Notes: generated from the sequence alone by a model not told the origin. Shown: positions 3,266 through 19,724, counted from the stretch's first letter. The stretch is 64,000 nt of DNA from a virus (IMGVR_UViG_3300044262_000032:1-64000), one strand, 5' to 3'. Translations and numbers: made by a program.

Positions 3266-3282
3266 CGTTACCGAAGGTAACG
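3266..3282. promoter_or_regulatory. GTTACC-N3-GGTAAC operator-like site, copy 2
   Basis: CGTTACC-GAA-GGTAACG immediately after the stop at 3265. Confidence 0.6.
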
Positions 3283-3411
3283 TGGAAGGACAAGGAAAGG
3301 AGACCTCATGAACTGGCGCCGCTGGTAGTCTGACGGTTGAAGGTGCGGGACGAGCATCGGCATCGTCCCAATCCTTGAGGTGTCAGACAATGAACCCAAA
3401 GGAGGGGTGAA

Positions 3412-3672
3412 ATGACGGTACGAGTGATTGAGGCTGCGTGGGAAAAGCAGCCGACCGTGGAGAAGATGATCCTGACAGTTCGGGAGTACGCCACGGCTCA
3501 CTACGATGAGGGTGGCTGGGACTACATCGTGGAGTGCTGGTCCGACGAGGACATCGCTCAGATCCTGGCCGAGGAGCAGTGCCACAGCCTCAAGCAGGCG
3601 GTCAAGACGATTCAGTCCATCGTCCAGGTCATGGACGACCGCCGGCGCGAGGTGATGGCCGAGGTGTTCTAG
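3412..3672 (+). CDS. hypothetical protein
   Basis: GGAGGGGTG SD; 86 aa. Confidence 0.7.
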   Translation: MTVRVIEAAWEKQPTVEKMILTVREYATAHYDEGGWDYIVECWSDEDIAQILAEEQCHSLKQAVKTIQSIVQVMDDRRREVMAEVF

Positions 3673-3677
3673 GAAAA

Positions 3678-3696
3678 GTGTTACCAAAGGTAACAC
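3678..3696. promoter_or_regulatory. GTTACC-N3-GGTAAC operator-like site, copy 3
   Basis: GTGTTACC-AAA-GGTAACAC, perfect 8-bp arms, intergenic. Confidence 0.6.
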
Positions 3697-3718
3697 ACAA
3701 CGAGGAAAGGAGAACGAA

Positions 3719-3934
3719 ATGGGACTGAGAGGGATGTGGAAGTCCGCTGACAAGCCCCGGATCGTGCAGGTCGAGGTCATTCACGAGCGCAAGTCCGTGA
3801 CCAGGACCACGATCAGCCCCGCCTCCTGCGAGGAGTGCGACGGCAAGCCCAGCGACGAGTGCTGGGAGCAGTACAACTGCCTCGTGGCCTTCGAGCGGAA
3901 GTTCGACAAGCCGTTCTCGGGGTCGGGGAAGTAG
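3719..3934 (+). CDS. hypothetical protein
   Basis: AAAGGAG SD; CxxC motif. Confidence 0.6.
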   Translation: MGLRGMWKSADKPRIVQVEVIHERKSVTRTTISPASCEECDGKPSDECWEQYNCLVAFERKFDKPFSGSGK

Positions 3935-3936
3935 CC

Positions 3937-4224
3937 ATGATTCCGAGGAGACAGAATCCGCTGTTCTACCTCGCGGAGTGCGACGAAGGGATGGCGAAGG
4001 ATCCGATGTTCGCGGCGAAGTGCGCTGCGGAGTTCCTGATGTCCATCACCATGCACGACATCCACTCCACGGAGAGCCTTGCGTCCTACACGCTGAAGGA
4101 CATCCAGCGTATGTTGGAACTCTCCGAGGCACAGCACGGCGAAGGTGTCACGGTCATCAACCCGATGCCCGCCACCTACTACGCCAACGCGATCGAGGAG
4201 GTGGATGACGATGGGCAAGCCTGA
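3937..4224 (+). CDS. hypothetical protein
   Basis: ATG 3937 closely following the previous stop; GC3-rich. Confidence 0.55.
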   Translation: MIPRRQNPLFYLAECDEGMAKDPMFAAKCAAEFLMSITMHDIHSTESLASYTLKDIQRMLELSEAQHGEGVTVINPMPATYYANAIEEVDDDGQA

Positions 4225-4450
4225 GGTTTCGATGACTGCGGATGTCCTCCTCCGTCGTCGGAAGTTCAGCCTCACCTTCACCAGCGAGACCACAGCCCAC
4301 GAACTCTGGTCGTACCTGTCCATGGTTCCACAGTCGGCCACGATCGAGGAGGTCTGGCAGCAGGACGAGTGGAAGGACGAATACCAGATCAAGGGCGTTC
4401 CCATGCGTCTGGACTTCCATCACGAGGAAGTCGTGAGGAGGGACAAGTAG
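4211..4450 (+). CDS. hypothetical protein
   Basis: GGAGG SD before ATG 4211. Confidence 0.55.
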   Translation: MGKPEVSMTADVLLRRRKFSLTFTSETTAHELWSYLSMVPQSATIEEVWQQDEWKDEYQIKGVPMRLDFHHEEVVRRDK

Positions 4451-4872
4451 TGGCTGGGATTGTCATGCTGGACCAGACCAATTTCGAGACCTACAAGTTG
4501 GTCAAGCAGGAACACATCAGGGAGTATCTGGATCTGAGTCGGGCGCACTGGCAGTTCCCGGTGCCCACGGAGTTCGTGGTGTCCAAGGAGTCGGAAGTCT
4601 GCGTCCCGATTCAAGGTCGAGTTTACCGCTGCGACTTGGCGGTGGCGAAGACCGAGCCGGATGGGCACGACAAGCCGTTGGTCATCGTCGAGGTCTTCGA
4701 GGATCACGGTGACGACGGTCACACGAACAATGTCCTAGTCGGATTCATGCTCATGCCGTGGGACGAGATGGGAGATTGGATCGAGAAGGTTAGGAAGGGC
4801 GAGAAGGGCAAGTACGGACATCCGTCCAACATCTACGATCTTACCCATCAGGCGATCAAGCCTTGGTGGTAA
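4450..4872 (+). CDS. possible PD-(D/E)xK nuclease-fold protein
   Basis: SEV...YRCDLAV...LVIVEVFEDH spacing resembles restriction-endonuclease-like cores. Confidence 0.4.
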   Translation: MAGIVMLDQTNFETYKLVKQEHIREYLDLSRAHWQFPVPTEFVVSKESEVCVPIQGRVYRCDLAVAKTEPDGHDKPLVIVEVFEDHGDDGHTNNVLVGFMLMPWDEMGDWIEKVRKGEKGKYGHPSNIYDLTHQAIKPWW

Positions 4873-4878
4873 AAGGGG

Positions 4879-5109
4879 GTGAGCGAAGGAATGGGTGACC
4901 TGCAGGTGAAGCCGAACGGGTTACACACAGGGCAGATGCGGATCTCCATTGACGACGGGTACTGCGAGTGGCAGTTCGATGTCCAGCTGCCAACGACCAT
5001 GTCCATCGATCAGGTCATGGAGAAGGTCGTCAACTCCACCGGCGCGAAGCGTCTGGTCGGCACCATGAGGTTGCGAACAACCCACGAGGCTTTCGGGAGG
5101 TTCAGATGA
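4879..5109 (+). CDS. hypothetical protein
   Basis: 76-aa ORF, tight packing. Confidence 0.5.
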   Translation: MSEGMGDLQVKPNGLHTGQMRISIDDGYCEWQFDVQLPTTMSIDQVMEKVVNSTGAKRLVGTMRLRTTHEAFGRFR

Positions 5110-5324
5110 ACGCAGCGGAACTGAGGCTCGGAATGGACCAGATGGGGCTCCTGCACATGGCGGTCGCGCCCTACCTCTGCGAGGGCGAGGTCTTCGTCAT
5201 CGAGGAGCATCCGGTGCAGGAGCCCGAAGTGGAAAAGCTCCTGATCTTCGGGTCGCGCGGCGCTACCCTGATTGCGCGGTTCGACGACCAGGGCTGGACC
5301 ATCAAGGAGGTGAACGTCCCGTGA
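5106..5324 (+). CDS. hypothetical protein
   Basis: ATGA overlap with the upstream ORF; GGGAGG SD. Confidence 0.55.
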   Translation: MNAAELRLGMDQMGLLHMAVAPYLCEGEVFVIEEHPVQEPEVEKLLIFGSRGATLIARFDDQGWTIKEVNVP

Positions 5325-5514
5325 AGAACGCGGAGAAGTTGTACCTGCTCCTTACCGAGAGCGGGCAACCGGCGGTGCAGTCCGACGACAAGGAGTGCAT
5401 CCTGGAACTCAAGCGGATGTTCAGCAAGGGAGCCCATATCCTCAAGCGCGGGGATGACGGGCAGTACCACAACATGCCTCTCCTGGAACAGGAAGGCTAA
5501 AGGAGGAGACAGAG

Positions 5515-5829
5515 ATGGCGAAGTCCCTGAAGGGTGTGAAGAAGGCTCTGAAGCACCTGCTCGGCTCCAAGCCCATGTCCTCGAAGAATCACGTCCCGGC
5601 GGAGTACAAGATCACGGACCGCGAAGGTTCGGTGGACGAGGCGCTCTCGGCGCGTCGGTTCAAGGACTCCTGCGAGCGGAACGAGAAGAACCGCAAGGTC
5701 GAGGAGGAGCGGCTCCTCAACAAGATCAAGAACCCGAAGGTGCGGATCAAGAAGGAGAAGGTGAAGAAGTCGGCGCCGGCTCCCAAGAAGTCCAAGAAGC
5801 GCAAGGGCGGAGGTGACGAGGAGGAGTAG
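5515..5829 (+). CDS. Lys-rich basic hypothetical protein
   Basis: AAAGGAGG SD; very high K content. Confidence 0.65.
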   Translation: MAKSLKGVKKALKHLLGSKPMSSKNHVPAEYKITDREGSVDEALSARRFKDSCERNEKNRKVEEERLLNKIKNPKVRIKKEKVKKSAPAPKKSKKRKGGGDEEE

Positions 5830-5830
5830 G

Positions 5831-6073
5831 ATGGGCGCAAAGTACGATGTCATGTTGGTGTCCATGGGGAATAACCTGGTGAGAGCGATTCTCGCCACGG
5901 ATCTCGATCGGGACACCGCGTGGGCAGCGGTCGAGCAGTACGGGAAGGAGTACGACACAGCCCAAGCCTTTGTGATTGACGACATCACCGGCAAGAACAA
6001 GGTTGGGCAGCAATATCGAGGCTTCCTCGTGGAAGGCTTCGATAATAGGAAAGGAGGTGAATTGAATGCCTAA
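5831..6073 (+). CDS. hypothetical protein, paralog of 6066-6422
   Basis: YDVMLVS..VRAILA..GKNKVG matches YDVLLIS..VRAILA..GKHKIG. Confidence 0.7.
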   Translation: MGAKYDVMLVSMGNNLVRAILATDLDRDTAWAAVEQYGKEYDTAQAFVIDDITGKNKVGQQYRGFLVEGFDNRKGGELNA

Positions 6074-6422
6074 TCCGCCTCAGATTACGGCCGGGAAGTC
6101 AACCACTCAGTACAAGGGAGTGACCTACGATGTCCTTCTCATCTCCCGTTCGACAGGGTGTGTCCGTGCGATTCTGGCTGAAGGGCTGGAGAGCATGGAG
6201 TCTCTTGACACCGTCAAGGTGTGGGGGAACGCCCTGAACACCAAGTTTGCCCTCGTCAAGGATCACACTTCGGGCAAGCACAAGATCGGGGACATCTTCA
6301 AGGGCTACGATGCCTCCCAGACTTCAACGGGGGGCTACTTCCCTGGTGCGAAGAAGGAGTTCGGTGCTCCAGCCGTGACGACCGTGAAGAACGGGGTCGA
6401 GAAGACCTACGACGGGATCTAG
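6066..6422 (+). CDS. hypothetical protein, paralog of 5831-6073
   Basis: AAAGGAGGTG SD; shared motif with the upstream ORF. Confidence 0.7.
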   Translation: MPNPPQITAGKSTTQYKGVTYDVLLISRSTGCVRAILAEGLESMESLDTVKVWGNALNTKFALVKDHTSGKHKIGDIFKGYDASQTSTGGYFPGAKKEFGAPAVTTVKNGVEKTYDGI

Positions 6423-6433
6423 ATCCTTTATCG

Positions 6434-6462
6434 AGGGGGTGACTTCGGTCACCCCTTCCATT
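6434..6462 (+). terminator. hairpin with C(UUCG)G loop, terminator-like
   Basis: AGGGGGTGAC-TTCG-GTCACCCCTT after the stop at 6422. Confidence 0.6.
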
Positions 6463-6500
6463 AAGGGATTTGGCTATCACTAGAGAAAGGAGGAATAGAG

Positions 6501-6797
6501 TTGGAATTTAACACTGGAGATCGTGTGGTAAACAAGAACAAACCGAGTTATGGACAGGGTACCGTGATTCACATACTGAATCCACGGTATCACAACCTCA
6601 CCACCCGCGTCGGTGTTCAGTTCGACAAGCCAATTCCGAGCGGGCACGACTGCTCTGGTGCTGAGCCAAACCACGGTTATTGGAGACTCGGGCACTGCTT
6701 CTGGTACACGCCACAGGAACTAGAGGTTGTGGGGCACGGTGAAGAAATTCCTCCTCTCAAGTGGCTGGGTGGAGGAAAACTGAAGGAGGTGACCTGA
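6501..6797 (+). CDS. CAP-Gly/SH3-like domain protein, paralog 1 of 3
   Basis: GDRV...GTV...VGVQFDKPIPSGHDCSG...ELEVVGHGEEIP. Confidence 0.65.
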   Translation: MEFNTGDRVVNKNKPSYGQGTVIHILNPRYHNLTTRVGVQFDKPIPSGHDCSGAEPNHGYWRLGHCFWYTPQELEVVGHGEEIPPLKWLGGGKLKEVT

Positions 6798-7117
6798 TGC
6801 GATTGGTACCAGGTGATCGTGTTCGGGTCAAGGACGAATTCGATGGAGAAAGTCTACCGGGCTGGGAAGGAACTGTAGTCCTTAATCATGAGCATAACGA
6901 TTCCTTGGTAGGAGTACAGTTCGATGAACCTATCTCCTGTGGACATGACTGCTGTGGCAATGCCCCGAACTACCCGATTTATCGGGATGGTTACTGTTGG
7001 TGGGGCGAGATGTCGGAATTGGAGTTCATCTGTCATGGCGAAGAAATACCTCCGGTGGCATATAGAGAGGTGAAAGGCTACACGCATACGCCGACCCTTT
7101 CAAAGGAGGTGAAATGA
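6797..7117 (+). CDS. CAP-Gly/SH3-like domain protein, paralog 2 of 3
   Basis: GDRVRV...GTVV...VGVQFDEPISCGHDCCG...ELEFICHGEEIP. Confidence 0.65.
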   Translation: MRLVPGDRVRVKDEFDGESLPGWEGTVVLNHEHNDSLVGVQFDEPISCGHDCCGNAPNYPIYRDGYCWWGEMSELEFICHGEEIPPVAYREVKGYTHTPTLSKEVK

Positions 7118-7491
7118 AGAAGATAGTCCATACGCACAAGTTCCGAGTCGGTGACCGTGTTCGAACCATCAACAAGCACTTTGCCGGAATTGTCATTGCC
7201 AAAGGCGAGGTTGGCATACTGGGAACCATAGTTGCAAGATGGGATCATAAGAAAGATTCCGATTGTAAGTACGGTGTCCAGTTCGACCAGAAGATCAACG
7301 GCGGCCACGATTGTAGCGGGAAAGAACCAAACTATCCTGTCTTCAAGAATGGATACTGTCGCTGGGGCTGCGGAACTGAGTTGGAGTTCATCGAACATGG
7401 AAAGGAGGTTCTTCCTCAGAAGTATGAGGCAAAGAACAAAGATGGCTCTCCGATTCCACTGAAACTTGTAAAAGGAAAGGGGGTGAGTTGA
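7114..7491 (+). CDS. CAP-Gly/SH3-like domain protein, paralog 3 of 3
   Basis: GDRVRT...GTIV...YGVQFDQKINGGHDCSG...ELEFIEHGKEV. Confidence 0.65.
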   Translation: MKKIVHTHKFRVGDRVRTINKHFAGIVIAKGEVGILGTIVARWDHKKDSDCKYGVQFDQKINGGHDCSGKEPNYPVFKNGYCRWGCGTELEFIEHGKEVLPQKYEAKNKDGSPIPLKLVKGKGVS

Positions 7492-7685
7492 TGGCAATGA
7501 GGAATGCTCCTGTCACGAAGGTTCTTCTGGCTCAAGGCGAGAAGAAAGTATGGTTCATCCGTCATGGCAATGGGCCAGTTCTTGTGAACTGGGTGTTCAC
7601 TGGACTGAAACAGAAACTGCCCCGCAATCTGGCGTTGGCCATCTACTACGGACTGAGAGCATTCGGATTCCAACGAGTGGTGTGA
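7488..7685 (+). CDS. hypothetical protein
   Basis: overlaps the upstream stop; 65 aa. Confidence 0.45.
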   Translation: MMAMRNAPVTKVLLAQGEKKVWFIRHGNGPVLVNWVFTGLKQKLPRNLALAIYYGLRAFGFQRVV

Positions 7686-7799
7686 AGGAGACGAAGATGT
7701 CCAACCCAAACCAGATGTTCCATGAGTGGCTGAAAGAGACCGCATTCAGCCTTACGAGGCTAGCAGCGGCGCAATATCAAGCCACGCCGAAGGAGCAAC

Positions 7800-8018
7800 A
7801 TGCCAACCTACACCATGAAAGTGATCAGGATGAAGTTGGGGGCAAGCCAAGTGAGACTTGCCCTCTTCAAGATCCTGACGCAGGAGGATGATACACCCTT
7901 TCTGCGTACTGTCGCCTTCTTCCACGACCACGAGATGATTGCCGAGGCAGCCAAACTCGTGGAGTGGAGGATACAACACGAACTCGGAGCATTGACCTTC
8001 GCACAGGTCGCGCTCTAA
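7800..8018 (+). CDS. hypothetical protein
   Basis: GGAG upstream; 72 aa. Confidence 0.5.
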   Translation: MPTYTMKVIRMKLGASQVRLALFKILTQEDDTPFLRTVAFFHDHEMIAEAAKLVEWRIQHELGALTFAQVAL

Positions 8019-8027
8019 GGAGGGATC

Positions 8028-8213
8028 ATGTCCGAAACCAAGATGGGTCTGCGTCAGAGGATTCTTCAGGCGACCACGGTCGGTGCGATCGAGACGCTCC
8101 TGAAGGAAGGTCTGACCTTCACCTTCGCGTCGGAGAAGACTCGGCGCTCGTGGAAGAACGCTGCCAAGCGCCGGACTGCTGAACTGGAGAAGGGCGTTCC
8201 GACGAACGCCTAG
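8028..8213 (+). CDS. hypothetical protein
   Basis: AAGGAGG SD. Confidence 0.65.
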   Translation: MSETKMGLRQRILQATTVGAIETLLKEGLTFTFASEKTRRSWKNAAKRRTAELEKGVPTNA

Positions 8214-8225
8214 AGAGGAGATGAA

Positions 8226-8642
8226 GTGAACATCCCGACCTGGAAGCAGATCAGCAAGGCCCTCCTCAAGGTGGGGGCTGCGGAGAACATTTGGGATCTT
8301 CAGCGGAAGATCGGTGTTTCTCCGATGACCATCGCCGCAGGGCTGAAGTGCAACTCGGTGCCGACTCACCTGTCTCTGGCGAAGGTGAAGGCATTCATCA
8401 ACCGACTCTCGGTGGTGCAGCGAGCGGAACTCCCTGCTCGTATCCGTGACATCGGGAACCTCACCACGAAGGTCTCCATGCCTGTCGTTCGCAAGCCGAA
8501 GGTGGTGGAGGCTGCCGCGATCAAGACGACGGTGAAGGAGAAGACGCCGCTCAAGGTAACGGTGAAGCAGACCATGACGACTGGGCAGCTTCTCCACACC
8601 CTCGGCGCTGCCTTCATCGAACTGGCAAAGGACTTCTCGTAG
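8226..8642 (+). CDS. putative HTH (Cro/C1-like) DNA-binding protein
   Basis: IWDLQRKIGVSPMTIAAGLK resembles an HTH; AGGAG SD. Confidence 0.45.
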   Translation: MNIPTWKQISKALLKVGAAENIWDLQRKIGVSPMTIAAGLKCNSVPTHLSLAKVKAFINRLSVVQRAELPARIRDIGNLTTKVSMPVVRKPKVVEAAAIKTTVKEKTPLKVTVKQTMTTGQLLHTLGAAFIELAKDFS

Positions 8643-8859
8643 AAGTCCGGCCATAACCAAGAAAGGAGCAGGAAATGACCGAGAAGGATGTTCTGGAGCA
8701 GTTGGAAGCGAAGCAGAAGGTCATCACGGGCGAGATCCTGGAGCACCAGGACGAGATCGCCAAGGCGCGGAAGCGTCTCAAGGAGATCGGGAAGCTGAGG
8801 AAGGTGCTCATCAAGGCCTTCCCGCAGGCCACGATGACCGAGGCGGTGTAGTACAACCA

Positions 8860-8883
8860 GAAGGGGGACTTCGGTCCCCCTTC
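8860..8883 (+). terminator. hairpin with C(UUCG)G loop
   Basis: GAAGGGGGAC-TTCG-GTCCCCCTTC; near-copy of the hairpin at 6434. Confidence 0.55.
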
Positions 8884-8913
8884 GCATTCCGATGATCCCA
8901 GGGGAGGAGGAGA

Positions 8914-9519
8914 ATGGACGAAGAGATGGCACTGAAGAAGGGGTTCGCGGTGCCGGATGAACCGGCATCCGACGATCCTGTGGATCGCATGGTCTATGCT
9001 CTCATGGTACAGACCAGGGCGTTCGCACAGGTGAACAAGTATTGGGCTGCGCCCAAGGAGAAAGAGGAGGAACCGAAGGACGCTGCTGAGGTCAAGCGGC
9101 TCCAGGAGATTTCCGACCTCGTCAAGAAACTCGGGGGCTGCAACGAGAGTGACTTCAGGAAGCTGATCACCCTTGTTGTTGGCAAGTCGCTGCCGTCGCC
9201 GAAGGTTCAGGCAACTGACATCCTCGGCGTGCAGTTCGTGCCCTTCGCTCTCGCCAAGGTGAAGGACAACCCGAACTCGCACAACTACCCGAAACACACT
9301 CCGATTCTCATTCATCGAGTGGAGTCGGAGAAGAAGCGGGCTCACGGCATGATCGACCAGGGCCTCGAAGGCAACTGGCTGCCCGAGTACCCGAAGTCCT
9401 ACGAGCCTTGCACGAAGGAAGAAATCGAAACCTTCGTCAAGAACCTCAAGAAGAACAAGACTGGGTCTGGGGTGTTCGCCAAGTACGCATCCCAGGCCTT
9501 CGACGCCATTTCGGCGTAG
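8914..9519 (+). CDS. hypothetical protein
   Basis: GGAGGAGG SD; 201 aa; GC3-rich. Confidence 0.75.
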   Translation: MDEEMALKKGFAVPDEPASDDPVDRMVYALMVQTRAFAQVNKYWAAPKEKEEEPKDAAEVKRLQEISDLVKKLGGCNESDFRKLITLVVGKSLPSPKVQATDILGVQFVPFALAKVKDNPNSHNYPKHTPILIHRVESEKKRAHGMIDQGLEGNWLPEYPKSYEPCTKEEIETFVKNLKKNKTGSGVFAKYASQAFDAISA

Positions 9520-9531
9520 ACCATTCAAACC

Positions 9532-9559
9532 GAGGGGACTGGGAACAGTCCCTTCTCTT
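9532..9559 (+). terminator. terminator-like hairpin ending the early block
   Basis: AGGGGACTG-GGAA-CAGTCCCTT then CTCTT. Confidence 0.55.
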
Positions 9560-10022
9560 GAGTGGTTTGTGCCACTCTTAACCACCGCGTAGTCCAACGA
9601 ATCTCCACTAATAGGAGGGACGGACGATGCTGAACAGTAGTTAAGTAGTTGCGGATGTACCTACACCGAAGGGAAAAGCTGGGCTATCACTCCTTCGGTG
9701 CCCTCTCTGGGGAGGGCGGGCAAAAGGCAGAGATGACCGTCTGCCTCACCTGGATAGCACAGGTTAAGGTAAGTATCGGAATCGCCGTAACCAGTATCGA
9801 GCACTCAGTACGCCCTATGGTTTGTCAAGCCCTAATAACCCAAATTATATGGTTTGAAAATTGTGTGGGGTTATTGGGGTGGTAATCATAGTGCCAAAAG
9901 TCACCGATGAGGTTCAGTCGAGGAAGAGAACGCCAACGGTTCGGGCAGCCATCGGGAGATGGCTTGGGGGGAGGCATGTCCTCCCCCGACAAATGCCCGC
10001 TTTCTGAAAGGAGGAGACTGGT

Positions 10023-12365
10023 TTGGCTGGACAAAAAGTAGTGTTCACCCTCGCGGAGGCTGCCTCGCAGACTCCCGAGGTGCTTGGGGGAAAGGGACAC
10101 GGGCTGGCAGTCATGGCCAGTCTTGGTGTGCCTGTGCCCCCGGCACTTGTGGTGAGTACCAAGGTTGCAAGGTCGTACCGACAGTATGGGAAGATACCTT
10201 CTCGACTGCCGGGTCAGTTGAAACTGGGCATCACACGCCTAGAGAAACTGACGGGGAAGAAGTTCGGTGATCCGAAGAATCCCCTGCTCGTGTCGGTTCG
10301 TTCTGGGGCGGTTGTTTCAATGCCCGGAATGATGGACACAATTCTGAACCTCGGATTGACGGAGACGATTACCAAGTCTCTCGCCGTGAAGTATGGGGCA
10401 GAGTTTGCGTGGGATTCCTACCGGCGCTTCCTGTTCATGTTCGGGAATGTCGTGTTCAATATCCCGGACGAAGTTCTGAAGTTCGAGGAGGAGGATGCCC
10501 AGGCCCATTGTGCGGCTCTCCGGGCGAAGGTCGAAGAATGGACTGGGCATCCTTTCCCCGATTCGCCAGCGATGCAGATGGCACTCGCGGTTGTTGCGGT
10601 TATCCGATCGTGGAACAGCGAGAGAGCCATTCTGTACCGTAAGACGAACGGGATCCCGGATTGGTGGGGAACTGCTGTCAACATCCAGAGCATGGCGTTT
10701 GGCAACCTAAATGACGCCTCTGCAACGGGTGTTGTGTTCAGCCGTGATGTCGCAACCGGCGCAAAGGGTATCTACGGTGAGTTTCTGCCCCGAGCGCAGG
10801 GTGAAGACATTGTTGCTGGCATTCGCACTCCCATGCCGGTCGCAGAGATGGAGAAGTGGAACAAATCTCTGTACCTGCAACTCGACAAGACCGTGCAGAC
10901 CCTTGAAGAGTATTACAAGGATGTGGTCGATGTCGAGTTCACCGTCGAGAACGGGAAGTTGTACATCCTTCAGGTTCGCAAAGCCAAGCGTACTCCTGAA
11001 GCGGGGTTGACAATCGCCACTAACTTCGTCTGGGAAGACAAGTGGACGAAGGAAGAGGCGGTCAAGAATGCTCGGTACATGGCTCGCCAGGTCGTAAAGC
11101 AATCTTTCGATCCGGTGAAGATGGAGAAGGCCAAGCAGTTGGGTATCGGTCTTCCTGCGTCTCCTGGCTGTGTCACGGGTCAGATCGTGTTTACCTCAAA
11201 GGATGCCGCTCGTTGGCTGAAGAACTCGGACAACGATACGAATGTCATCCTGATTCGCCCTGACACAAGTCCTGATGATCTTGAGGGTATGCTCGCTTCC
11301 AAAGCGATCGTTACCGGCACAGGTGGTCTCACGTCCCATGCTGCGGTTGTTGCTCGTGGCATAGGCAAGCCCTGTATTGTTGGGGTTGATGCCATCAAGT
11401 TCGTGGACGAGGATACCATCAAGATCGGTGGTACGACCCTGACGAAGGGGGAAATCATCTCTGTCGATGGCGCTACGGGCAAGATCTTCCGTGGTGAAAT
11501 TGCCCTCGACAAGCAGTTGGATTTCAAGAAGGAGATCAGCATCTTCATGAAGTGGATGAAGGAGCTGGAACCTCCTCCCCCTACGCCGAGAGTCGGATTC
11601 GAGTACATGGGGCAGACAATGCCCGAGAATACCCTGCTCAACGACTTCTATATCTCCGATGCCATGCTGTTGGCAGTCGGGGGGCATCCTGCTGAGCAGG
11701 AGTATCAGGAGTATAGGGATTCGGTGCACTTTATGGGTGCTGAGCGTCTGGCTTGCTACCTGGCTATCGCCTGTGCTGGCGAGTTGAGGCATTCATTCTC
11801 CCATTGCAAGGAGTACAGTTCCTTGCCGTGCAACTGCATAGCCTGTACTCTCAAGCACGGCCAGTCAAAGATTGGCTATCCTGGGTATGCTGAAGCCAAG
11901 TATGCTCGGGAGGTGCTGGTCTCAAAGTATGGTCTGAAGCAGGGTGGTTCTGGACGTGAGAGCCAGCAGATCGCCACGGTTGACAAGTTGAAGAAGATGG
12001 ATGAGCAGGATGTAACCACCTTCTTCTTCCTCGCGGAACTCGTCTTTAGGAAGTACAAATGGAGCAGTGGGTATGGTGGTGAGAATTGGGCCAACATCGC
12101 CGCTGCGCCTGTGAAGTTCTTGACGGGTGAAGTCAGCCACAGCGTGTTCTGCGACCATGTCTTTGACCTTCAGCACAACAATGGTTCGGTGTTCGGTAAG
12201 CACAAGATGTTCAAGGGGCACCGTGACCATGTGAAGCGACAGTTGGATCAGAAGAAACGGGCTACGAATGTCGCGGATCTGGTTCAGCGACTCAAGCCTT
12301 GGGGCGTTATCTCACCACAGACGATGACGCTGTTTACCAAGGGTAACAAGTTGGGGCTTTGGTAA
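10023..12365 (+). CDS. PPDK-family dikinase-like protein (ATP-grasp + phospho-His swivel domain) with non-PPDK C-terminal domain
   Basis: LGGKG, LLVSVRSGA..SMPGMMDTILNLG, GEDIVAG, DVEFTVENGKLYILQVR, GGLTSHAAVVARG; the last ~260 aa show no PEP-binding barrel motifs. Confidence 0.9.
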   Translation: MAGQKVVFTLAEAASQTPEVLGGKGHGLAVMASLGVPVPPALVVSTKVARSYRQYGKIPSRLPGQLKLGITRLEKLTGKKFGDPKNPLLVSVRSGAVVSMPGMMDTILNLGLTETITKSLAVKYGAEFAWDSYRRFLFMFGNVVFNIPDEVLKFEEEDAQAHCAALRAKVEEWTGHPFPDSPAMQMALAVVAVIRSWNSERAILYRKTNGIPDWWGTAVNIQSMAFGNLNDASATGVVFSRDVATGAKGIYGEFLPRAQGEDIVAGIRTPMPVAEMEKWNKSLYLQLDKTVQTLEEYYKDVVDVEFTVENGKLYILQVRKAKRTPEAGLTIATNFVWEDKWTKEEAVKNARYMARQVVKQSFDPVKMEKAKQLGIGLPASPGCVTGQIVFTSKDAARWLKNSDNDTNVILIRPDTSPDDLEGMLASKAIVTGTGGLTSHAAVVARGIGKPCIVGVDAIKFVDEDTIKIGGTTLTKGEIISVDGATGKIFRGEIALDKQLDFKKEISIFMKWMKELEPPPPTPRVGFEYMGQTMPENTLLNDFYISDAMLLAVGGHPAEQEYQEYRDSVHFMGAERLACYLAIACAGELRHSFSHCKEYSSLPCNCIACTLKHGQSKIGYPGYAEAKYAREVLVSKYGLKQGGSGRESQQIATVDKLKKMDEQDVTTFFFLAELVFRKYKWSSGYGGENWANIAAAPVKFLTGEVSHSVFCDHVFDLQHNNGSVFGKHKMFKGHRDHVKRQLDQKKRATNVADLVQRLKPWGVISPQTMTLFTKGNKLGLW
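12333..12347. promoter_or_regulatory. GTTACC-N3-GGTAAC site, copy 4 (1 mismatch)
   Basis: TTTACC-AAG-GGTAAC at the 3' end of the dikinase gene. Confidence 0.3.
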
Positions 12366-12384
12366 GCCGCAGAAAGGAGAAGGG

Positions 12385-13290
12385 ATGTCTCTGAAAAAGA
12401 ACAAAAGGAGGAAGTTGGTTCGAAGCACCGACTATATGGCGATGGGAGGCGCTGACAAGATCCCGGTTAACTCGGGAAAAGGAACTAGCCGTACTGATCT
12501 GATGGCCGGAGACTACGACATCGACGGCTATTCGCTGGACGGCTATGGGGGTAGCTGGCGAGGTGCCGGAACCACCTACAACGCTGCTGGCTACAACTAC
12601 AAACCGCATCCCAAGCATATCGGCGACAAACCGATCAAGGTCGGGAAGTTCGAAATCTTCGCTGGTGGGATGCGGGATCTGACTCCCGATGACATCGACA
12701 AGTTCGATGTCCTGATCCCGCTGACGCAAGACATTCCTAACATGACCTTCGGCCATCCGTACCGCATTCTCGCAGCGCCGCTGGTCGATTACGGTGGCGT
12801 GCCCGACACCTGGGAAGTGTTCCTCAAGGAACTCGTGATTCCGCTGCTGGAAGGCGGTCACAAGATCCTGGCCTACTGCTACGGCAGTCACGGTCGAACG
12901 GGGTGCTTCCTCGCTTCTCTGATTTCGATTCTTGAGCCGGAGACGGCGGATCCGATCGAAGCAGCACGGAAGCGGCATTGCAAGAAGGCGGTCGAGTCGC
13001 TGGCGCAGGCGAAAGCGGTCTATGCGCTGAGAGGGGAGGAGCTGCCCGAGAAGTGGGCGAAGGACTTTTCCAACGTCACCCGTGGATACTCTTACACGGC
13101 TGGCTACGGCGGCAATACGAACTGGGGCTCGTATGGTGGCGGGTCTTATGAGCGTAAGCCTGCTGAGGTCAAGCCGGTCCCGGAAACCGCGAGCGGTATC
13201 GCCGGCAAGACGGTGAAGGAAGTTGCCGCGATGAATGATGCTGACTGGGCGGCCTACGCCAAGGAAAGCAACATTCCAATCTTCGACTAA
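12385..13290 (+). CDS. CX5R cysteine phosphatase (PTP/dual-specificity family)
   Basis: ILAYCYGSHGRTGCFLASL P-loop; VESLAQ Q-loop-like; Gly/Tyr-rich flanks. Confidence 0.85.
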   Translation: MSLKKNKRRKLVRSTDYMAMGGADKIPVNSGKGTSRTDLMAGDYDIDGYSLDGYGGSWRGAGTTYNAAGYNYKPHPKHIGDKPIKVGKFEIFAGGMRDLTPDDIDKFDVLIPLTQDIPNMTFGHPYRILAAPLVDYGGVPDTWEVFLKELVIPLLEGGHKILAYCYGSHGRTGCFLASLISILEPETADPIEAARKRHCKKAVESLAQAKAVYALRGEELPEKWAKDFSNVTRGYSYTAGYGGNTNWGSYGGGSYERKPAEVKPVPETASGIAGKTVKEVAAMNDADWAAYAKESNIPIFD

Positions 13291-13299
13291 GGAGGAACG

Positions 13300-14289
13300 A
13301 TGGGATACGGATTCCCGGAGCCTGGCAGTAAGTGGTACATGGGTGGCACCGATGGCAGCGGCGAGTATATGGTCGTTGCCGAAGGTGAGTTCGGTCGAGT
13401 CGGTTACCGTGAGGTGAAGCCGAAGATCTACCGTGTTCGGTTTGAGCCCAACACCGACGAGACCTCCACGATGGAGCAGATTCAGAAGGTGCTCCACAAC
13501 TGGTGCCCGCCCCAATCGAGCATCGGTGGTGACACCTTCCGCTTCTCCGTTCTGGCCAATGGCATCGACTCGCTCCGCATGGGTCTGGATCAGGCGATCA
13601 AGGCGATGGGATCGTTTGGGAGTTTCAACCCTGCGGCCCCGGAGTTCGCTCGAAAACTCATCGACGAGCCCTTCGATGCCAGCGCCACACCGCCGCTGCC
13701 CCCACCCCCTGGCGGGGGTTCTGGGTGGTGGATCGGTAAGGGATTCGCTCCGATGGAGACCAAGGGGATCTTCGCGGAGTGGATGAGCAAGAAGATGAGC
13801 CCTGGCACCGATCTTCATGACAACGGGTATCACAGCGAGGACGAGCACGAGGACGAAGACGAGGAGGAGAACGAGGAGAGCGATGATGAGAGCGAGGAAA
13901 TCTCGCCGACTCCTCCTTCGGAGGTGGATCCAATCTCCGAGCATTTCGACATCACCCTTCTTCTTGACGGAGACAAGTTCCTCGACGGGCACATGCCTAT
14001 CGCTGCTGGCGTCAAGGACGCGCGTCTCACGGCAAAGTTGAAGGAGATCTGCAGGGAAATCTCTGCGGAGATGGGCAAGAGCTGGATGGGTGGGTGTGGT
14101 TGTGGTGCGTGCGTCAAGATCAACAACCAGGCTCTGGAGAAATACAAGGAACTCCTCGAAGCGGAGATCATCGCCAAGACGCCGCCGCTCACCGAGGAAC
14201 AGAAGAAGGCCAAGACCGTTGAGCACACCGTCGAAGTGATGAAGGCGGCTGGTGATCTCGCGGCTTGCCTCAAGGCTTTCGGTTTCTAA
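13300..14289 (+). CDS. hypothetical protein; N-terminal domain paralogous to 14415-14882, acidic linker, Cys-containing C-terminus
   Basis: AAGGAGG SD; shared blocks with the next ORF. Confidence 0.8.
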   Translation: MGYGFPEPGSKWYMGGTDGSGEYMVVAEGEFGRVGYREVKPKIYRVRFEPNTDETSTMEQIQKVLHNWCPPQSSIGGDTFRFSVLANGIDSLRMGLDQAIKAMGSFGSFNPAAPEFARKLIDEPFDASATPPLPPPPGGGSGWWIGKGFAPMETKGIFAEWMSKKMSPGTDLHDNGYHSEDEHEDEDEEENEESDDESEEISPTPPSEVDPISEHFDITLLLDGDKFLDGHMPIAAGVKDARLTAKLKEICREISAEMGKSWMGGCGCGACVKINNQALEKYKELLEAEIIAKTPPLTEEQKKAKTVEHTVEVMKAAGDLAACLKAFGF

Positions 14290-14414
14290 CAAAGGAGGTG
14301 AGTAAGAAAGTACAAGGAGAAAGCCATTCGCCCGTGAAGAGTAGAAGGTGCAGTACAGGCGCAGTATCTCCGCAAACAGGGCATAACGCCCAACTACGAA
14401 AGGAGCAGTACACC

Positions 14415-14882
14415 ATGTCGAATCCCGCTTTCCAGATGGCCGGCACCGAGGGTTCCTTCCAGTATGTCGTCGTCGCTCTGGGCACCGAGGGCCGCATCGG
14501 CTTCCGCCCGCTCGGTGACATGGCTCGCGTCCGCATCGAGCCCAAGGACGGCGCTTCCTACGGCGTCGTGCGCCGGATGGACGAGGAGCTGCAGGGCTCC
14601 GACTTCGAGTGGAAGACCCCGAACGGTCAGTTCCGCTTCTCGACCGTGATCGACGGCAACGAGGGCCTGCGCGAGGCTCTCGAAGTCGGCATCGGCGTCA
14701 TCGGGGAGATCGAGCAGGTCAACCCGGCCGCGCCGGCGTGGGCTCGTCGCCTCGCTGGTGAGTACGTGCCGGAGCCGGCTCCGGTCGCCGCGAAGGCCGA
14801 GTCGTGCGGTCTCAACGAGGACCTCGTGAAGGCGCTGCTCGCCTCCATGCAGGCTCTCGCCGCGGCGCTCGTCAAGAAGTAA
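14415..14882 (+). CDS. hypothetical protein, paralog of the 13300-14289 N-terminal domain
   Basis: AAAGGAG SD before ATG 14415; MAGTEGS..YVVVA.G..GRIGFR..RVRIEP..FRFS..NPAAP. Confidence 0.8.
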   Translation: MSNPAFQMAGTEGSFQYVVVALGTEGRIGFRPLGDMARVRIEPKDGASYGVVRRMDEELQGSDFEWKTPNGQFRFSTVIDGNEGLREALEVGIGVIGEIEQVNPAAPAWARRLAGEYVPEPAPVAAKAESCGLNEDLVKALLASMQALAAALVKK

Positions 14883-14933
14883 TCAACGGTAGTCCGTTGA
14901 TCGAACAGAGGGCCTTCTGCCCTCTGTTCCCTT
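14882..14933 (+). terminator. tandem hairpins ending the dikinase operon
   Basis: ATCAACGG-TAGT-CCGTTGAT and GAACAGAGGGC-CTTCT-GCCCTCTGTTC. Confidence 0.6.
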
Positions 14934-14973
14934 GAACGGATTGCTAACGGGCACACGCCCAGAAAGGAGAAGT

Positions 14974-15318
14974 ATGAAGAAACTGTTTGTAGGAGGACTG
15001 GTGGCTCTGGCGTTAACAGGGTGCGGGTATGTGTCAACGGACAATGAACTGATGGGTCAGGTCAAGAAGGTCAAGCACAACACCCCGCTGATCTGCCCCA
15101 ACTACTACTCCGTCGATGTGAGCCTCGGCGTCATGCGAAATGGCGTTGGCTCGATGTCCACTCAGGATGTTTGGCTGCGCGTGGAAGATCACTCCATGCT
15201 CAAGACCCTTCGGGAAGCGACAGAGAGCGGCGCGCTGGTCAAGATCAAGTGTGACCAGTATCGTTTTGCACCCTGCGCCCCCGACTACACCCTGACTGGC
15301 GTCGAAATCATCCCGTAA
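14974..15318 (+). CDS. lipoprotein
   Basis: signal peptide with lipobox MKKLFVGGLVALALTG-C. Confidence 0.7.
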   Translation: MKKLFVGGLVALALTGCGYVSTDNELMGQVKKVKHNTPLICPNYYSVDVSLGVMRNGVGSMSTQDVWLRVEDHSMLKTLREATESGALVKIKCDQYRFAPCAPDYTLTGVEIIP

Positions 15319-15373
15319 TCCTCTGATCGGATAGAGGGCGAAAGCCCTCTATCTCATTGAGCGGATTGCACAT

Positions 15374-15447
15374 CTGCCTCGTGGTCTGAACGCAAGACGC
15401 TCCCCGAAGGGGGGAAATACGGGCTCGATGCCCGTCGAGGCAGGCCA
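15374..15447 (+). ncRNA. isolated tRNA-like RNA (non-canonical cloverleaf with CCA end)
   Basis: CTGCCTCG/CGAGGCAG acceptor, GTCT/AGAC D-arm, TCCC/GGGA middle arm, ACGGG-CTCGATG-CCCGT T-arm, G-CCA. Confidence 0.65.
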
Positions 15448-15448
15448 A

Positions 15449-15467
15449 TTTACAAGCACTTGAAAAG
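15449..15467. repeat. dispersed palindrome, copy 2
   Basis: TTTACAAG-CA-CTTGAAAAG right after the CCA of the tRNA-like RNA. Confidence 0.8.
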
Positions 15468-15633
15468 CGAAAGGAGGTAGAATGCGTAGACCAATAAGTA
15501 AATTGAAACGCAGGCGGTACCTCAAGTTGGTCAAACAATTCTGTACCGAAGACCTCTCAAAGGCAGCTGGTAAGGAGTTTTGGGCATTGGTTCGTCCAAA
15601 AGGAAGAGTAAAGATATAGAGAAGGAGGTGGGT

Positions 15634-15819
15634 ATGGCAGATTCCTCTACCGTGATGTGTTGTGCCAACTGTGGTTTCTTTCAGCATCGGTACAAAACTC
15701 CGCAGATGGGTGACTGTGGTCATCACAAGAGGGCAACGATGGCCATGTCCTACTGCGGAAAGTTCGCATGGGCGAATGGTGTTCGCTGGATAGTAGGGAA
15801 GGGAGGGAAGAAGAAGTGA
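15634..15819 (+). CDS. Cys-rich hypothetical protein
   Basis: AAGGAGGTG SD; CCANC...C...C. Confidence 0.55.
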   Translation: MADSSTVMCCANCGFFQHRYKTPQMGDCGHHKRATMAMSYCGKFAWANGVRWIVGKGGKKK

Positions 15820-16061
15820 TCTCCCGATGGGACTACTACGAACATCATGAGAGCAAGGAGGCGCTGGCAGAGGGACAGATGCCAGTCGAGCAGGAAGTGG
15901 ATTTTACCTGTCCTATCAGCGGTGCAGTTTTGTCAAAGGTATGCAAGTTCTACCATGAAGTTTCCACAAAATCCCTGGAGTATCACGGATATATTGTGGA
16001 CATGGAGTGTCGCAAGGGCTGTTTCAATGAGAAAGGGTGCCCCTATGCAAAAAAGGGCTAG
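15816..16061 (+). CDS. hypothetical protein
   Basis: GTGA overlap with upstream ORF; Cys motifs. Confidence 0.5.
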   Translation: MISRWDYYEHHESKEALAEGQMPVEQEVDFTCPISGAVLSKVCKFYHEVSTKSLEYHGYIVDMECRKGCFNEKGCPYAKKG

Positions 16062-17040: not shown

Positions 17041-18225
17041 GTGGATATTCTAATGGATCCGCAGACGCGCCTTCCAATCAAATCTTGGGCGCCATTGGAA
17101 AGTATTGAACCAGAAGCAATCGAACAGGCGAAGAACTTGGCCTCTCTTCCGTTTGCCCATCATCATATTGCTCTCATGCCAGACTGTCATTCCGGATATG
17201 GGATGCCGATCGGGGGTGTTCTTGCCACCAAGAATGTTGTAATTCCCAATGCTGTGGGAGTTGATATTGGGTGCGGAATGCTTTCGGTCAAAACGGGGCT
17301 CGGTACTCATGTTATCAACCCCGAAAGGCTTCGACTGATCTTTGGACGACTTCGGGAGTCTATCCCAGTTGGATTTGAGCACCACAAAGAGGCTCAGGAT
17401 GAGAAGTTCATGCCCGAGGATCGATCCGTACTGGAGACCGATTCGGTTGTTCGTCCTCAGTACATGGCTGCGCTAAAGCAGGTAGGAACTCTCGGTGGTG
17501 GCAATCACTTCATCGAGTTCCAAGAAGACGAGGACGGCGCTCTCTGGTTTACGGTACATTCCGGCAGTCGGAATCTGGGTCATCGAGTTGCATCGTGGTA
17601 TAACGACCGAGCGAAGGCACTCTGTGACCGATGGTTTACCTCTGTTCCGGCGAAGTGGGATCTGGCGTTTCTCCCGATTGGCGAGGATCTTACAACCAAC
17701 TACATCACGGATATGAAATACTGTGTGGAGTTCGCCAAGAAGAATCGGGAGCTGATGGCTCGTAGGATCTCCGCGGCCCTCTATGGGTTTGTACCGTTCA
17801 CAGAGGAGTGGCGCCTGGATATTGCTCACAACTATGTCCGAGCCGAGTTCCACGGTGGACAGAATCTCTGGGTTCATCGTAAGGGTGCTACATCCGCGAA
17901 GAACGGGGAGTTCGGCATCATCCCCGGCTCCCAGGGGACTCACACCTTCATTGTCAGAGGTCTGGGCAATCCTGAAAGTTTCTCCTCATGTAGTCATGGC
18001 GCAGGCAGAGTTATGGGGAGAAAGCAGGCGCAGCGTTCCCTGAATCTGAAGGAAGAACAGAAGAAGATGGAAGCTGCGGGCGTTATGGTCCATGGTCTTC
18101 GTTCTTCAAAGGATCTGGATGAAGCGCCTGGAAGCTACAAATCCATTGACTGGGTAATGTCACATCAGACCGACCTGGTTGAAGTGGTCCACACGCTACG
18201 GCCTCTTGCCGTGATGAAAGGATAG
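17041..18225 (+). CDS. rtcB: RtcB RNA ligase
   Basis: PDCHSGYGMPIG, VGVDIGCG, GTLGGGNHFIE, HSGSR, HRKGA, PGSQG, HGAGR, DEAPGSYK. Confidence 0.97.
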   Translation: MDILMDPQTRLPIKSWAPLESIEPEAIEQAKNLASLPFAHHHIALMPDCHSGYGMPIGGVLATKNVVIPNAVGVDIGCGMLSVKTGLGTHVINPERLRLIFGRLRESIPVGFEHHKEAQDEKFMPEDRSVLETDSVVRPQYMAALKQVGTLGGGNHFIEFQEDEDGALWFTVHSGSRNLGHRVASWYNDRAKALCDRWFTSVPAKWDLAFLPIGEDLTTNYITDMKYCVEFAKKNRELMARRISAALYGFVPFTEEWRLDIAHNYVRAEFHGGQNLWVHRKGATSAKNGEFGIIPGSQGTHTFIVRGLGNPESFSSCSHGAGRVMGRKQAQRSLNLKEEQKKMEAAGVMVHGLRSSKDLDEAPGSYKSIDWVMSHQTDLVEVVHTLRPLAVMKG

Positions 18226-18813: not shown

Positions 18814-19134
18814 ATGAATATTCTATTCGTCTGTACCATGAACAAGATGCGGTCCAAGACCGCCGAGAAACTATTTGAAGGCCACCCGATACATGTGGCC
18901 AAATCTGCTGGGCTCTCGCCAAAGGCAAAGACGAAGGTTACTCCGAAACTTCTTGAATGGGCTGATCTGATCTATGCCTTCGAGAGTTGGCAGGCTCGGA
19001 TGTTGAAGCGGAGAACAAAGGTAAAGCCGGTCGTCTGTCTTTATATCCCGGACGAGTTTGGCTTTATGGATTCTGACCTTATTCAGACGCTTCGGTGGCG
19101 GCTGAATAGCAAACTAGATAAAGGAGGAGGGTAA
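18814..19134 (+). CDS. low-molecular-weight PTP-like phosphatase
   Basis: N-terminal NILFVCTMNKMRSKTAE (CX5R), SAG, WADLI, IPDEF. Confidence 0.85.
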   Translation: MNILFVCTMNKMRSKTAEKLFEGHPIHVAKSAGLSPKAKTKVTPKLLEWADLIYAFESWQARMLKRRTKVKPVVCLYIPDEFGFMDSDLIQTLRWRLNSKLDKGGG

Positions 19135-19724
19135 TGAGCCGGAGATTTGTTTATGCGGATCCGCACTTCGGACACGCAAGTATTATCACCTATGCCCAAC
19201 GACCGTGGGTATCTGTGGACAAGATGGATGCGGATCTTGTCAAGTTGTACAACTCCGTAGTTGGGAAGGATGATCTTGTGTACTGGCTCGGGGATGTGAC
19301 TCTCCGAGGTCCCGACAAGAAGGGCTGGCTTGCTCGAATCCTGGGCAAGATGAACGGTCGTAAGGTCCTCGTGTTTGGCAATCATGATGATTGGCACTGG
19401 CAACACTATCTGGATGTGGGCTTTCAATCCGCACATACCTTTCTTGAGTTCCAGGATCCGGCCATTAGAGAGTCTGAATATAGAGGAATTCGCCTCTGCC
19501 ACGATCCTGCTTGGGCTCAGGATAAGAACTATCTATGGATCGTTGGTCATCTTCATAACTGCGCGTTCACCGCTCCCTATCACATTGCGGTTGTGAGTGT
19601 GGAGCTTACGGATTACAAGCCGGTTCCTATCGAACTCATTGCTTACGGTGAGCGACCTGGAGCTGGAGTGCTGCGAACGGGACCTCGGGAGAATCGCACG
19701 CCAAAGGAGTGGGGTGATGGATGA
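19134..19724 (+). CDS. calcineurin-like metallophosphoesterase
   Basis: ADPHFGH, LGD, GNHD, CHDP, GHLH. Confidence 0.9.
   Translation: MSRRFVYADPHFGHASIITYAQRPWVSVDKMDADLVKLYNSVVGKDDLVYWLGDVTLRGPDKKGWLARILGKMNGRKVLVFGNHDDWHWQHYLDVGFQSAHTFLEFQDPAIRESEYRGIRLCHDPAWAQDKNYLWIVGHLHNCAFTAPYHIAVVSVELTDYKPVPIELIAYGERPGAGVLRTGPRENRTPKEWGDG

Follow-up and report, generated by a model that had tools for sequence, protein, structure and literature searches.

The virus sequence IMGVR_UViG_3300044262_000032 carries, at positions 10023-14933 of its plus strand, a four-gene cluster that we interpret, with moderate confidence, as a compact form of a self-contained, three-component phosphoryl-transfer (writer/eraser) system. 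The window analyzed here is the first 64 kb of this 89.7-kb IMG/VR virus record. Among public sequencing runs, one sediment metagenome, probably the source sample, contains this stretch, and no RNA run does. On sequence comparison, the module comprises three protein families: a dikinase fused to a helical C-terminal domain denoted X (dikinase::X), a cysteine phosphatase of the protein tyrosine phosphatase (PTP) type, and a small protein, P34, the last of which is duplicated in the window. A preliminary description had proposed an undescribed system of four gene families, namely, a dikinase, a CX5R phosphatase and two paralogs. This composition is borne out by Pfam domains, by the phosphatase motif CYGSHGR and by the 36% identity between the paralogs, P3 and P4; however, P3 and P4 belong to one family, so that three families were found rather than four. 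The window dikinase itself is a fusion of two proteins that are encoded separately in cultured phages. The system indeed appears to be undescribed: no paper in the searched literature treats the gene set mechanistically, and genome papers merely list “pyruvate phosphate dikinase” and “tyrosine phosphatase.”

The dikinase and its C-terminal domain

The first gene (10023-12365, plus strand) is an open reading frame (ORF) of 780 amino acids (aa). Its front end (10023-11510) combines an ATP-grasp domain of the pyruvate phosphate dikinase (PPDK) type (PF01326, 2e-42) with a phosphohistidine swivel domain (PF00391, 1e-22). The catalytic histidine, His439 (codon 11337-11339), lies in the GGLTSH motif of the swivel domain and is invariant across 24 fused homologs. 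Residues 7-496 align to the PPDK of C. symbiosum (1KBL) at 3e-127, a match far stronger than those to phosphoenolpyruvate (PEP) synthase (PEPS) or rifampin phosphotransferase (RPH). Beyond this region the resemblance ends. In a Pfam scan, the product of this gene gave no match to the PEP/pyruvate barrel (PF02896), and the PPDK model TIGR01828 scored 566 bits against a cutoff of 843, aligning only over model positions 2-525 of 865 (60%). As a control, the true PPDK of the gut contig L008 shows PF02896 at 1.5e-76. Among the features expected of a PPDK, the ATP-grasp and swivel domains are present, and the barrel and a full-length score are missing.

These results bear directly on the notion of an ordinary PPDK that produces PEP as an auxiliary metabolic enzyme. 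GenBank labels the cultured relatives “pyruvate phosphate dikinase,” and the N-terminal 496 residues are strongly PPDK-like; nevertheless, with PF02896 absent where it is readily detected in true PPDKs, and with TIGR01828 below its cutoff at partial coverage, the metabolic identity is refuted at the sequence level and the notion is hardly credible. The consequence for annotation is broad. The gene carries the PPDK label, sometimes that of an “auxiliary metabolic gene,” in dozens of genomes of cultured phages (Vibrio, Stenotrophomonas, Rhizobium, Rhodobacter) and in many from metagenomes; as the encoded protein lacks the pyruvate-binding domain, the label is wrong.

In place of the barrel stands X, the all-helical C-terminal 260 residues of the protein (11583-12365, plus strand; residues ~521-780). 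X matches phrog_20946 and is homologous to a stand-alone “hypothetical protein” of ~340 aa in cultured phages (blastp, 1e-11 to 1e-12); when the window X was compared with this phage X family by hhalign, the probability was 99.5% (E 2e-22 over 183 columns). An exhaustive profile-free search recovered 1,619 cluster representatives of X homologs at E ≤ 1e-3, clustered at 50% identity, and the best 150 of these are mostly proteins of 700-800 aa in which X is C-terminal. The AlphaFold2 model of X, built from a 54-sequence alignment, is all-helical, with a predicted local distance difference test score (pLDDT) of 92 and a predicted template modeling score (pTM) of 0.89. Invariant residues of the family are a Tyr, a Glu, the GG..W motif, an Asp, a His and F.K, and an Arg, a His and an Asn are nearly so; the motifs of the domain are RE.RH, GYGG..W and D....L.HN.G..F.K. 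Judged by alignment and model, the barrel has been replaced by a confidently predicted, independent domain that bears polar invariants, presumably the acceptor-binding domain.

X is also a component of very long proteins, namely, P0016 (2,263 aa), P0102 (1,926 aa) and P0120 (1,247 aa), and occurs without the dikinase front end in proteins of bacteria of the candidate phyla radiation (CPR) and of a Woesearchaeota metagenome-assembled genome (MAG) (L219-L223). Pfam searches gave nothing consistent across 36 X-family members and, in the long X proteins, no informative domain except an SH3_15 repeat in P0102. The window X has an insertion rich in Cys and His, C..C.C..C...H (11800-11880, residues ~594-617), that all aligned homologs lack.

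The phosphatase, the P34 proteins and conservation of the module

The second gene (12385-13290, plus strand; 301 aa) encodes a cysteine phosphatase whose core, at approximately residues 75-225, is framed by low-complexity N- and C-terminal extensions. Its CX5R motif is CYGSHGR (C165-R171; C165 codon 12877-12879), and the residues that are invariant in a 42-sequence alignment of the family are D135, C165, G170, R171, E204 and Q208. Taken alone, the window sequence remains below the Pfam gathering score (Tc-R-P, 14.5 versus 27), and its sole structural match is SsoPTP (E 0.02), in an alignment in which the general-acid Asp loop, the P-loop and the Q-loop coincide. The family profile matches Tk-PTP (5z59, 9e-15), DUSP23/VHZ (1e-13) and SsoPTP (6e-13), followed by PTPs of the classical receptor and SHP types; no lipid, RNA-triphosphatase or glucan phosphatase is named among the 60 best profile matches. 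By sequence the enzyme is catalytically complete, and its residues are those of phosphotyrosine or aryl-phosphate hydrolases, a hint as to the substrate.

The third gene (13300-14289, plus strand; 329 aa) encodes P3, and the fourth encodes P4, a minimal form of the same domain. P3 and P4 share 36% identity over the first ~120 residues of P3 (E 5e-16), and this common alpha/beta domain defines P34; a family model built from 37 sequences recognizes P4 at 4e-40 and P3 at 4e-36. Beyond its P34 domain (13324-13680), P3 continues into a Pro-rich linker, a tract that is strongly acidic, and a helical tail that contains Cys; the protein has one full-length homolog (P0009, 41% identical). In the 37-sequence alignment, G11, R39, R41, E43, P44, W67, R75 and S77 are invariant and T12, Y18, G27, R32 and F76 nearly invariant. 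The resulting motifs, GTEG..Y, RxRxEP, W and RFS, describe a Gly-rich loop that closes on a Tyr beside an Arg cluster. The AlphaFold2 model of P4 is alpha/beta, with a pLDDT of 90.7.

Many bacterial members of the family end in one to three repeats of the form KxPGAN.ASRWSL.TLRAKV, which by eye look like HeH/SAP motifs; Pfam gave no match for this reading. The tail of P3 carries a CGCGAC cluster (14060-14100, residues ~263-272), where its homolog P0009 has CSCTSC. This Cys tail and the Cys/His-rich insertion of X could be lineage-specific metal sites.

Conservation of the module was surveyed in phages and in bacteria. Among 80 IMG/VR loci retrieved with the dikinase, three situations were told apart. 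Some loci hold canonical PPDKs, with the partner genes absent. In ~40 phage loci, there is a fixed order of dikinase, small ORFs, PTP1, X, PTP2 and a further gene, Y. Finally, the window and L006, which is its closest relative (56% identity), hold dikinase::X, a single PTP and a paralog-type protein; in L006, P34 homologs lie 3′ of dikinase::X-PTP. The five-gene order recurs in the cultured Stenotrophomonas phages DLP3 and DLP5, in Vibrio phage VH2_2019 and its relatives, in Rhizobium phage RHph_Y1_11 and in Rhodobacter phage RcZahn, and in the four annotated phages among them, DNA polymerase I is encoded downstream of the module. The C-terminal tails of the dikinases of these five-gene phages are unrelated to X, Y or P34 by hhalign. 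Y, for its part, is probably a relative of P34: the profile comparisons gave E values of 2.6e-5 (75%) and 1.3e-4 (53%), and the two families share GT(E/S)G..Y..VVA and RxR(V/I)E motifs.

Canonical full-length PPDKs with the partner genes absent are the rule in a group of IMG/VR gut contigs (L007-L041 and L046, with the barrel shown for L008) and in the MT83xxxx “Bacteriophage sp.,” “Listeria phage LM” and “Enterococcus phage Efs” records. The PPDKs of such gut “viral” contigs and records resemble host genes caught at the margins of contigs or prophages more than they do phage dikinase modules. In phage DLP3, the protein DLP3_141 (L001 10611-11387) is the second PTP of the module and matches other PTPs by blastp at 1e-12 to 1e-46. 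The “thymidylate synthase” label on DLP3 gp141 and on the PHROG family phrog_17568 appears to be a mislabel; in the CD-search of the DLP3 authors, gp141 is a tyrosine phosphatase.

In bacteria, one genome per prokaryotic species was searched with an alignment of close X domains as the query, yielding 58 loci with an X domain, mostly in Obscuribacterales/Melainabacteria, Saccharibacteria and other Patescibacteria (CPR). The domain is fused to the dikinase in 53 of the 58, as it is in the window, in L006 and in most of the top 150 representatives. Beside the 53 fused dikinases, a PTP was found in 34 loci, a P34 in 35, both in 24 and at least one of the two in 45. Two loci, L195 and L189, encode PTP::P34 fusion proteins with opposite domain orders. 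L189 also carries two dikinases, and three contigs of one Obscuribacter MAG carry one cassette each. Around these cassettes, conservation extends to no further gene family. Scans of genome contigs with the X domain alone confirmed nothing, and those with the full-length dikinase alignment returned only ordinary bacterial PPDKs.

The gene-neighborhood co-occurrence on which the preliminary description had staked its case is strong, extending over ~40 phage loci and 45 of the 53 bacterial ones. The window itself displays every feature of the module: a barrel-less front end, a fused X, an adjacent PTP and an adjacent P34, in two copies. The paralogs, which had been cast as possible adaptors or substrates, emerge as a third conserved component and not as extras confined to the window. 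Because the genes co-occur in both phages and bacteria and are linked pairwise by independent fusions, dikinase::X and PTP::P34, the comparative evidence supports the view that the dikinase, PTP and P34 genes form one functional unit.

Leader RNA and genomic context

Immediately upstream of the dikinase lies a structured noncoding leader (9520-10022, plus strand) that contains no conserved ORF and folds with a minimum free energy of −209 kcal/mol, compared with −172 ± 6.9 kcal/mol for shuffled sequences (z −5.5). Inside it, an element of ~100 nucleotides (nt) with four hairpins (9664-9766) is conserved. A covariance model built from the single window sequence identified its equivalent in L006 (7656-7757; 33.9 bits, E 4.7e-6), ~220 nt upstream of the L006 dikinase. 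In the alignment of the two elements, pairing extends to 92% of cells, with both sides changed in 8 of 26 pairs, whereas slid controls are 40-48% paired; as only two sequences are available, the covariation is suggestive. The whole upstream region of L006 is not unusually stable (z −0.8), and only the ~100-nt element is conserved. The covariance model found no copy in the 58 bacterial loci or in ~36 five-gene phage loci, nhmmer found no relative of the leader at the sequence level, and a sequence pattern of the element gave only chance matches in viral contigs, none of them near a dikinase. This stretch had previously been regarded as a gene-poor promoter region. It is indeed devoid of a convincing ORF between 9520 and 10022; the promoter fared less well, as a search for sigma-70-like promoters in the same interval detected none.

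ORF-free stretches of 0.5-1.7 kb also flank many of the bacterial cassettes, and two of these were folded against shuffles. The stretch in a Saccharibacteria MAG (L200 7744-8580) is highly structured, with z −9.9 on the plus strand and −8.8 on the minus strand; the one in L184 gave z −2.9. Comparable ORF-free gaps lie beside the cassettes of L179, L182-L185, L188, L190, L192, L196, L197 and L207, and further ones beside those of L209, L213, L214 and L216-L218. Several of the Obscuribacterales gaps are connected by weak nhmmer links.

The four genes of the window are codirectional, as originally described, and a Shine-Dalgarno (SD) sequence was found before every start: AAGGAGG at the 3′ end of the leader, ahead of the TTG start of the dikinase at 10023; AAAGGAGAAGGG ahead of gene 2 at 12385, 20 nt beyond the dikinase stop; TAAGGAGGAACG ahead of gene 3 at 13300; and AAAGGAG ahead of gene 4 at 14415. 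The fourth ORF extends from 14265 to 14882 on the plus strand, but translation almost certainly begins at the ATG at 14415 and yields 155 aa, because this ATG has its own SD and the homologs measure 154-156 aa. Two consecutive hairpins follow the last stop (14883-14900 and 14903-14929, plus strand) and were read directly from the sequence. Their proposed role as a double-hairpin terminator is less secure than their existence, since no T-run follows and a terminator scan made no call there; the pair (14883-14929) is possibly a transcript end or a processing site. Family-model searches of the whole 89.7-kb record found one PTP and two P34 copies.

The module is located in the G+C-richer left arm of the genome (55-61%, versus 47-50% past ~16 kb), where its neighbors are unknown early genes; the step in base composition at ~16 kb separates 1-16000, with the module inside, from 16000-64000. 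Downstream of the module are genes for RtcB, a phosphoesterase, a DnaD-like loader, DnaB, ThyX, 26 tRNAs and a family-A DNA polymerase. The RtcB-type RNA ligase (17041-18225; phrog_1075, 3e-117) and the phosphoesterase (19134-19724; phrog_547, 2e-31) lie 2-4 kb from the module. The phosphoesterase is also kept in L006, and RtcB was not detected in the fetched part of that locus. The ThyX-type thymidylate synthase is encoded at 44322-44876 (1.7e-50) and the cluster of 26 tRNA genes at 46521-53199. Closer to the module, a small lipoprotein-like gene (14975-15318) is followed just 3′ (15330-15447) by a GAAA-tetraloop hairpin and then a tRNA-like cloverleaf whose acceptor stem has 8 bp and whose CCA is encoded. 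Neither ARAGORN nor Rfam calls a tRNA at 15330-15447; the 162-nt stretch that holds the cloverleaf folds with z −4.4.

Proposed mechanism, alternatives and known systems

The proposed mechanism has three steps. From the close homology to PPDK, the ATP-grasp domain would use ATP to load His439 of the swivel with phosphate, probably with inorganic phosphate as the coacceptor, as in PPDK. The architecture suggests that the swivel would then carry this phosphate to X, where a bound acceptor would be phosphorylated. Finally, judging from the co-occurrence and the fusions, PTP would remove that phosphate or a closely linked one, and P34 would act with PTP, either as the phosphoacceptor itself or as a subunit that holds the target. 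Our guess for the acceptor is an aryl hydroxyl, that of Tyr18 of P34 or of another protein tyrosine, because PTP has a phosphotyrosine-type catalytic set, P34 has a near-invariant Tyr by an Arg cluster, and dikinases that act on phenol are known. Dikinases that phosphorylate phenolic hydroxyls exist, phenylphosphate synthase being one example. In the phage, the set occupies the early/replication half of the genome, where the conserved, structured RNA leader precedes it, and its target would probably be a host or phage component during takeover. A more specific version, in which dikinase::X writes and PTP erases a phosphate on the P34 protein or on a structured RNA, making a His-swivel dikinase a protein (tyrosine) or RNA kinase, is offered only tentatively. 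If true, it would amount to phosphosignaling chemistry that is unrelated to Hanks, BY or histidine kinases, has its own RNA leader, and is common to phages, CPR bacteria and Melainabacteria.

Several observations weigh against the three-component writer/eraser interpretation. Neither X nor P34 has recognizable fold relatives that would link it to protein, nucleic-acid or metabolite binding. For X, no fold match was found in the PDB (best Foldseek E 0.67; best Z in the wide VIA-align search, 4.9), and the ESM Atlas returned no feature matches. The best values for P4 are in the noise range as well (Foldseek E 0.013; VIA Z 5.5), with weak resemblances at that level to chains of type III secretion system (T3SS)-chaperone/YbjN type, to ACT-like domains and to protein-kinase N-lobes; in the ESM Atlas, P4 gave no feature matches and only structural hits with TM scores of ≤0.51. 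The partners are, moreover, not always found together: among the 53 bacterial loci, P34 lacks a neighboring PTP in 11, and in 10 a PTP is present but no P34 was detected. The profile scores that relate P34 to Y are moderate (53-75% probability), the conserved Tyr in P34 may have a purely structural role, and a coencoded writer and eraser would run a futile cycle unless separated by time, space or target.

Other targets can be envisaged. The phosphate might be added to and removed from a nucleic acid, at an RNA 2′-OH, a strand end or a modified DNA base, with P34/Y as the binding subunit. Such a target would accommodate the large, highly structured ORF-free stretches that adjoin bacterial cassettes (L200, z −9.9) and the RNA element common to the window and L006, although these RNAs could be cis-regulatory leaders and the phage RNA model has no match in the bacterial and five-gene loci. 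The DNA polymerase I gene downstream of the module in the four annotated phages, and the presence of RtcB and the tRNA-like element within 2.5 kb downstream of it in the window, point in the same direction, as does the resistance of DLP3 DNA to 15 of the 15 restriction enzymes tested (PMC7326821). P34 is also Arg-rich, and its bacterial C-terminal repeats resemble HeH/SAP motifs, but the HeH reading was made by eye and Pfam is empty there. Furthermore, PTP groups with phosphotyrosine-type enzymes, with no RNA-triphosphatase-type or polynucleotide phosphatases among the 60 best profile matches. The phage has ThyX, with no ThyA-like hydroxymethylase or TGT detected, so that neither a substrate base nor a route for DNA hypermodification is visible in it. 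Taken together, these points make a nucleic-acid target unlikely, though not negligibly so.

Alternatively, the acceptor could be a small molecule, such as a metabolite, a signal or an antibiotic-like compound, with PTP recycling or controlling the product and the leader RNA sensing it. To our knowledge, every characterized member of the superfamily other than PPDK and PEPS has a small molecule or a glucan as its substrate; RPH and phenylphosphate synthase both phosphorylate small molecules. The compact polar invariant set of X would suit a small ligand pocket, and structured leaders upstream fit riboswitch-type control. A small-molecule substrate would, however, make it hard to explain a dedicated, conserved P34 that is fused to PTP in two lineages; no transporter or biosynthetic gene is conserved nearby, and the RPH and PEPS models score far under their cutoffs, so we consider this target quite unlikely. 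The poorest prospects among these possibilities are those of a toxin/antidote-like conflict module, in which dikinase::X would inactivate an essential or defense component and PTP would be the antidote, as DarG is to DarT, bacteria using the set as a mobile conflict island and phages using it for takeover or counterdefense. The bacterial cassettes, with their unconserved flanks and several copies per genome, the pairing of a writer with an eraser, and the early-region position in the phage all conform to it. Against this stand the five-gene form, which looks like a core set beside replication genes rather than an accessory one, and a search of PADLOC-DB 2.0, in which none of the four proteins had a match at E ≤ 0.01.

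Under the favored interpretation, a writer/eraser system, the set pairs an enzyme with two proteins of unrecognized fold and a phosphotyrosine-type phosphatase, in phages and in bacteria that are either ultrasmall or nonphotosynthetic relatives of cyanobacteria. The present analysis adds that the window paralogs share a family with the third gene of the bacterial cassettes and probably with phage Y, that PTP::P34 fusions exist, that PTP has the D-, P- and Q-loops of the phosphotyrosine type, and that fused-type phages have a conserved leader RNA. Identification of the acceptor would open a branch of phosphoryl transfer, be it a protein or RNA kinase principle or a DNA modification like that of DLP3, and would give a function to a phage early gene set. 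The window form, with a fused dikinase::X, one PTP and two small partners, is a handy minimal system for biochemistry.

Among known systems, PPDK (EC 2.7.9.1; 1KBL/1DIK; TIGR01828) has in common with the module the ATP-grasp domain and the swivel with its TSH motif. Because these front-end domains are shared, with the 1KBL alignment at 3e-127, the module dikinase probably also has the first two partial reactions of PPDK (ATP + Pi + His → His-P + AMP + PPi). Unlike PPDK, it has no C-terminal TIM barrel, carries the unrelated all-helical X in that position, and is accompanied by a PTP and a small protein. The small phosphotyrosine phosphatases Tk-PTP (5z59), SsoPTP (2i6i) and VHZ/DUSP23 (2img) have the same C(X)5R P-loop and the same general-acid Asp in a (P)xxDxGxP loop as the window PTP, and its Q-loop reads AVExxAQ where that of SsoPTP reads AVQTYEQ; the window enzyme differs from them in being very divergent, in its long low-complexity extensions and in being encoded with a dikinase set.

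The parallel originally drawn with glucan water dikinase (GWD) and the phosphatases SEX4/LSF2 or laforin extends no further than enzyme class. In both cases, a His-swivel dikinase is paired with a Cys-based phosphatase of the PTP superfamily, so that the enzyme classes correspond; the domain order, the carbohydrate-binding modules (CBMs) and a kinship of the phosphatase with laforin or SEX4 do not. In GWD, N-terminal CBM45 modules precede the His domain and the C-terminal nucleotide domain, whereas the module dikinase has the opposite order, with the nucleotide domain N-terminal and the swivel central. A Pfam scan at E ≤ 0.1 found no CBM family (CBM45, or CBM48/CBM20) in the four proteins. Finally, GWD and SEX4 are not known to form an operon. 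RPH (NF041857) is a member of the same superfamily that likewise has a noncanonical acceptor domain instead of the pyruvate barrel. Its swivel His domain is C-terminal and its acceptor domain central, in contrast to the central swivel of the module, and NF041857 scores 37.5 bits against gene 1 (cutoff 999), with only the swivel region aligning.

A chemical precedent for an aryl acceptor is phenylphosphate synthase (PpsABC), which applies dikinase chemistry of the PEP-synthase type to a phenolic hydroxyl and whose split subunits resemble the five-gene phage form. PpsABC supplies a carboxylase and is not known to have a partner phosphatase or P34. The phenol hydroxyl is the group found in the tyrosine side chain, and its phosphate ester is of the kind hydrolyzed by phosphotyrosine-type PTPs. 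As they stand, the module enzymes vary a familiar enzyme type, and identification of the acceptor may well show them to be categorically new.

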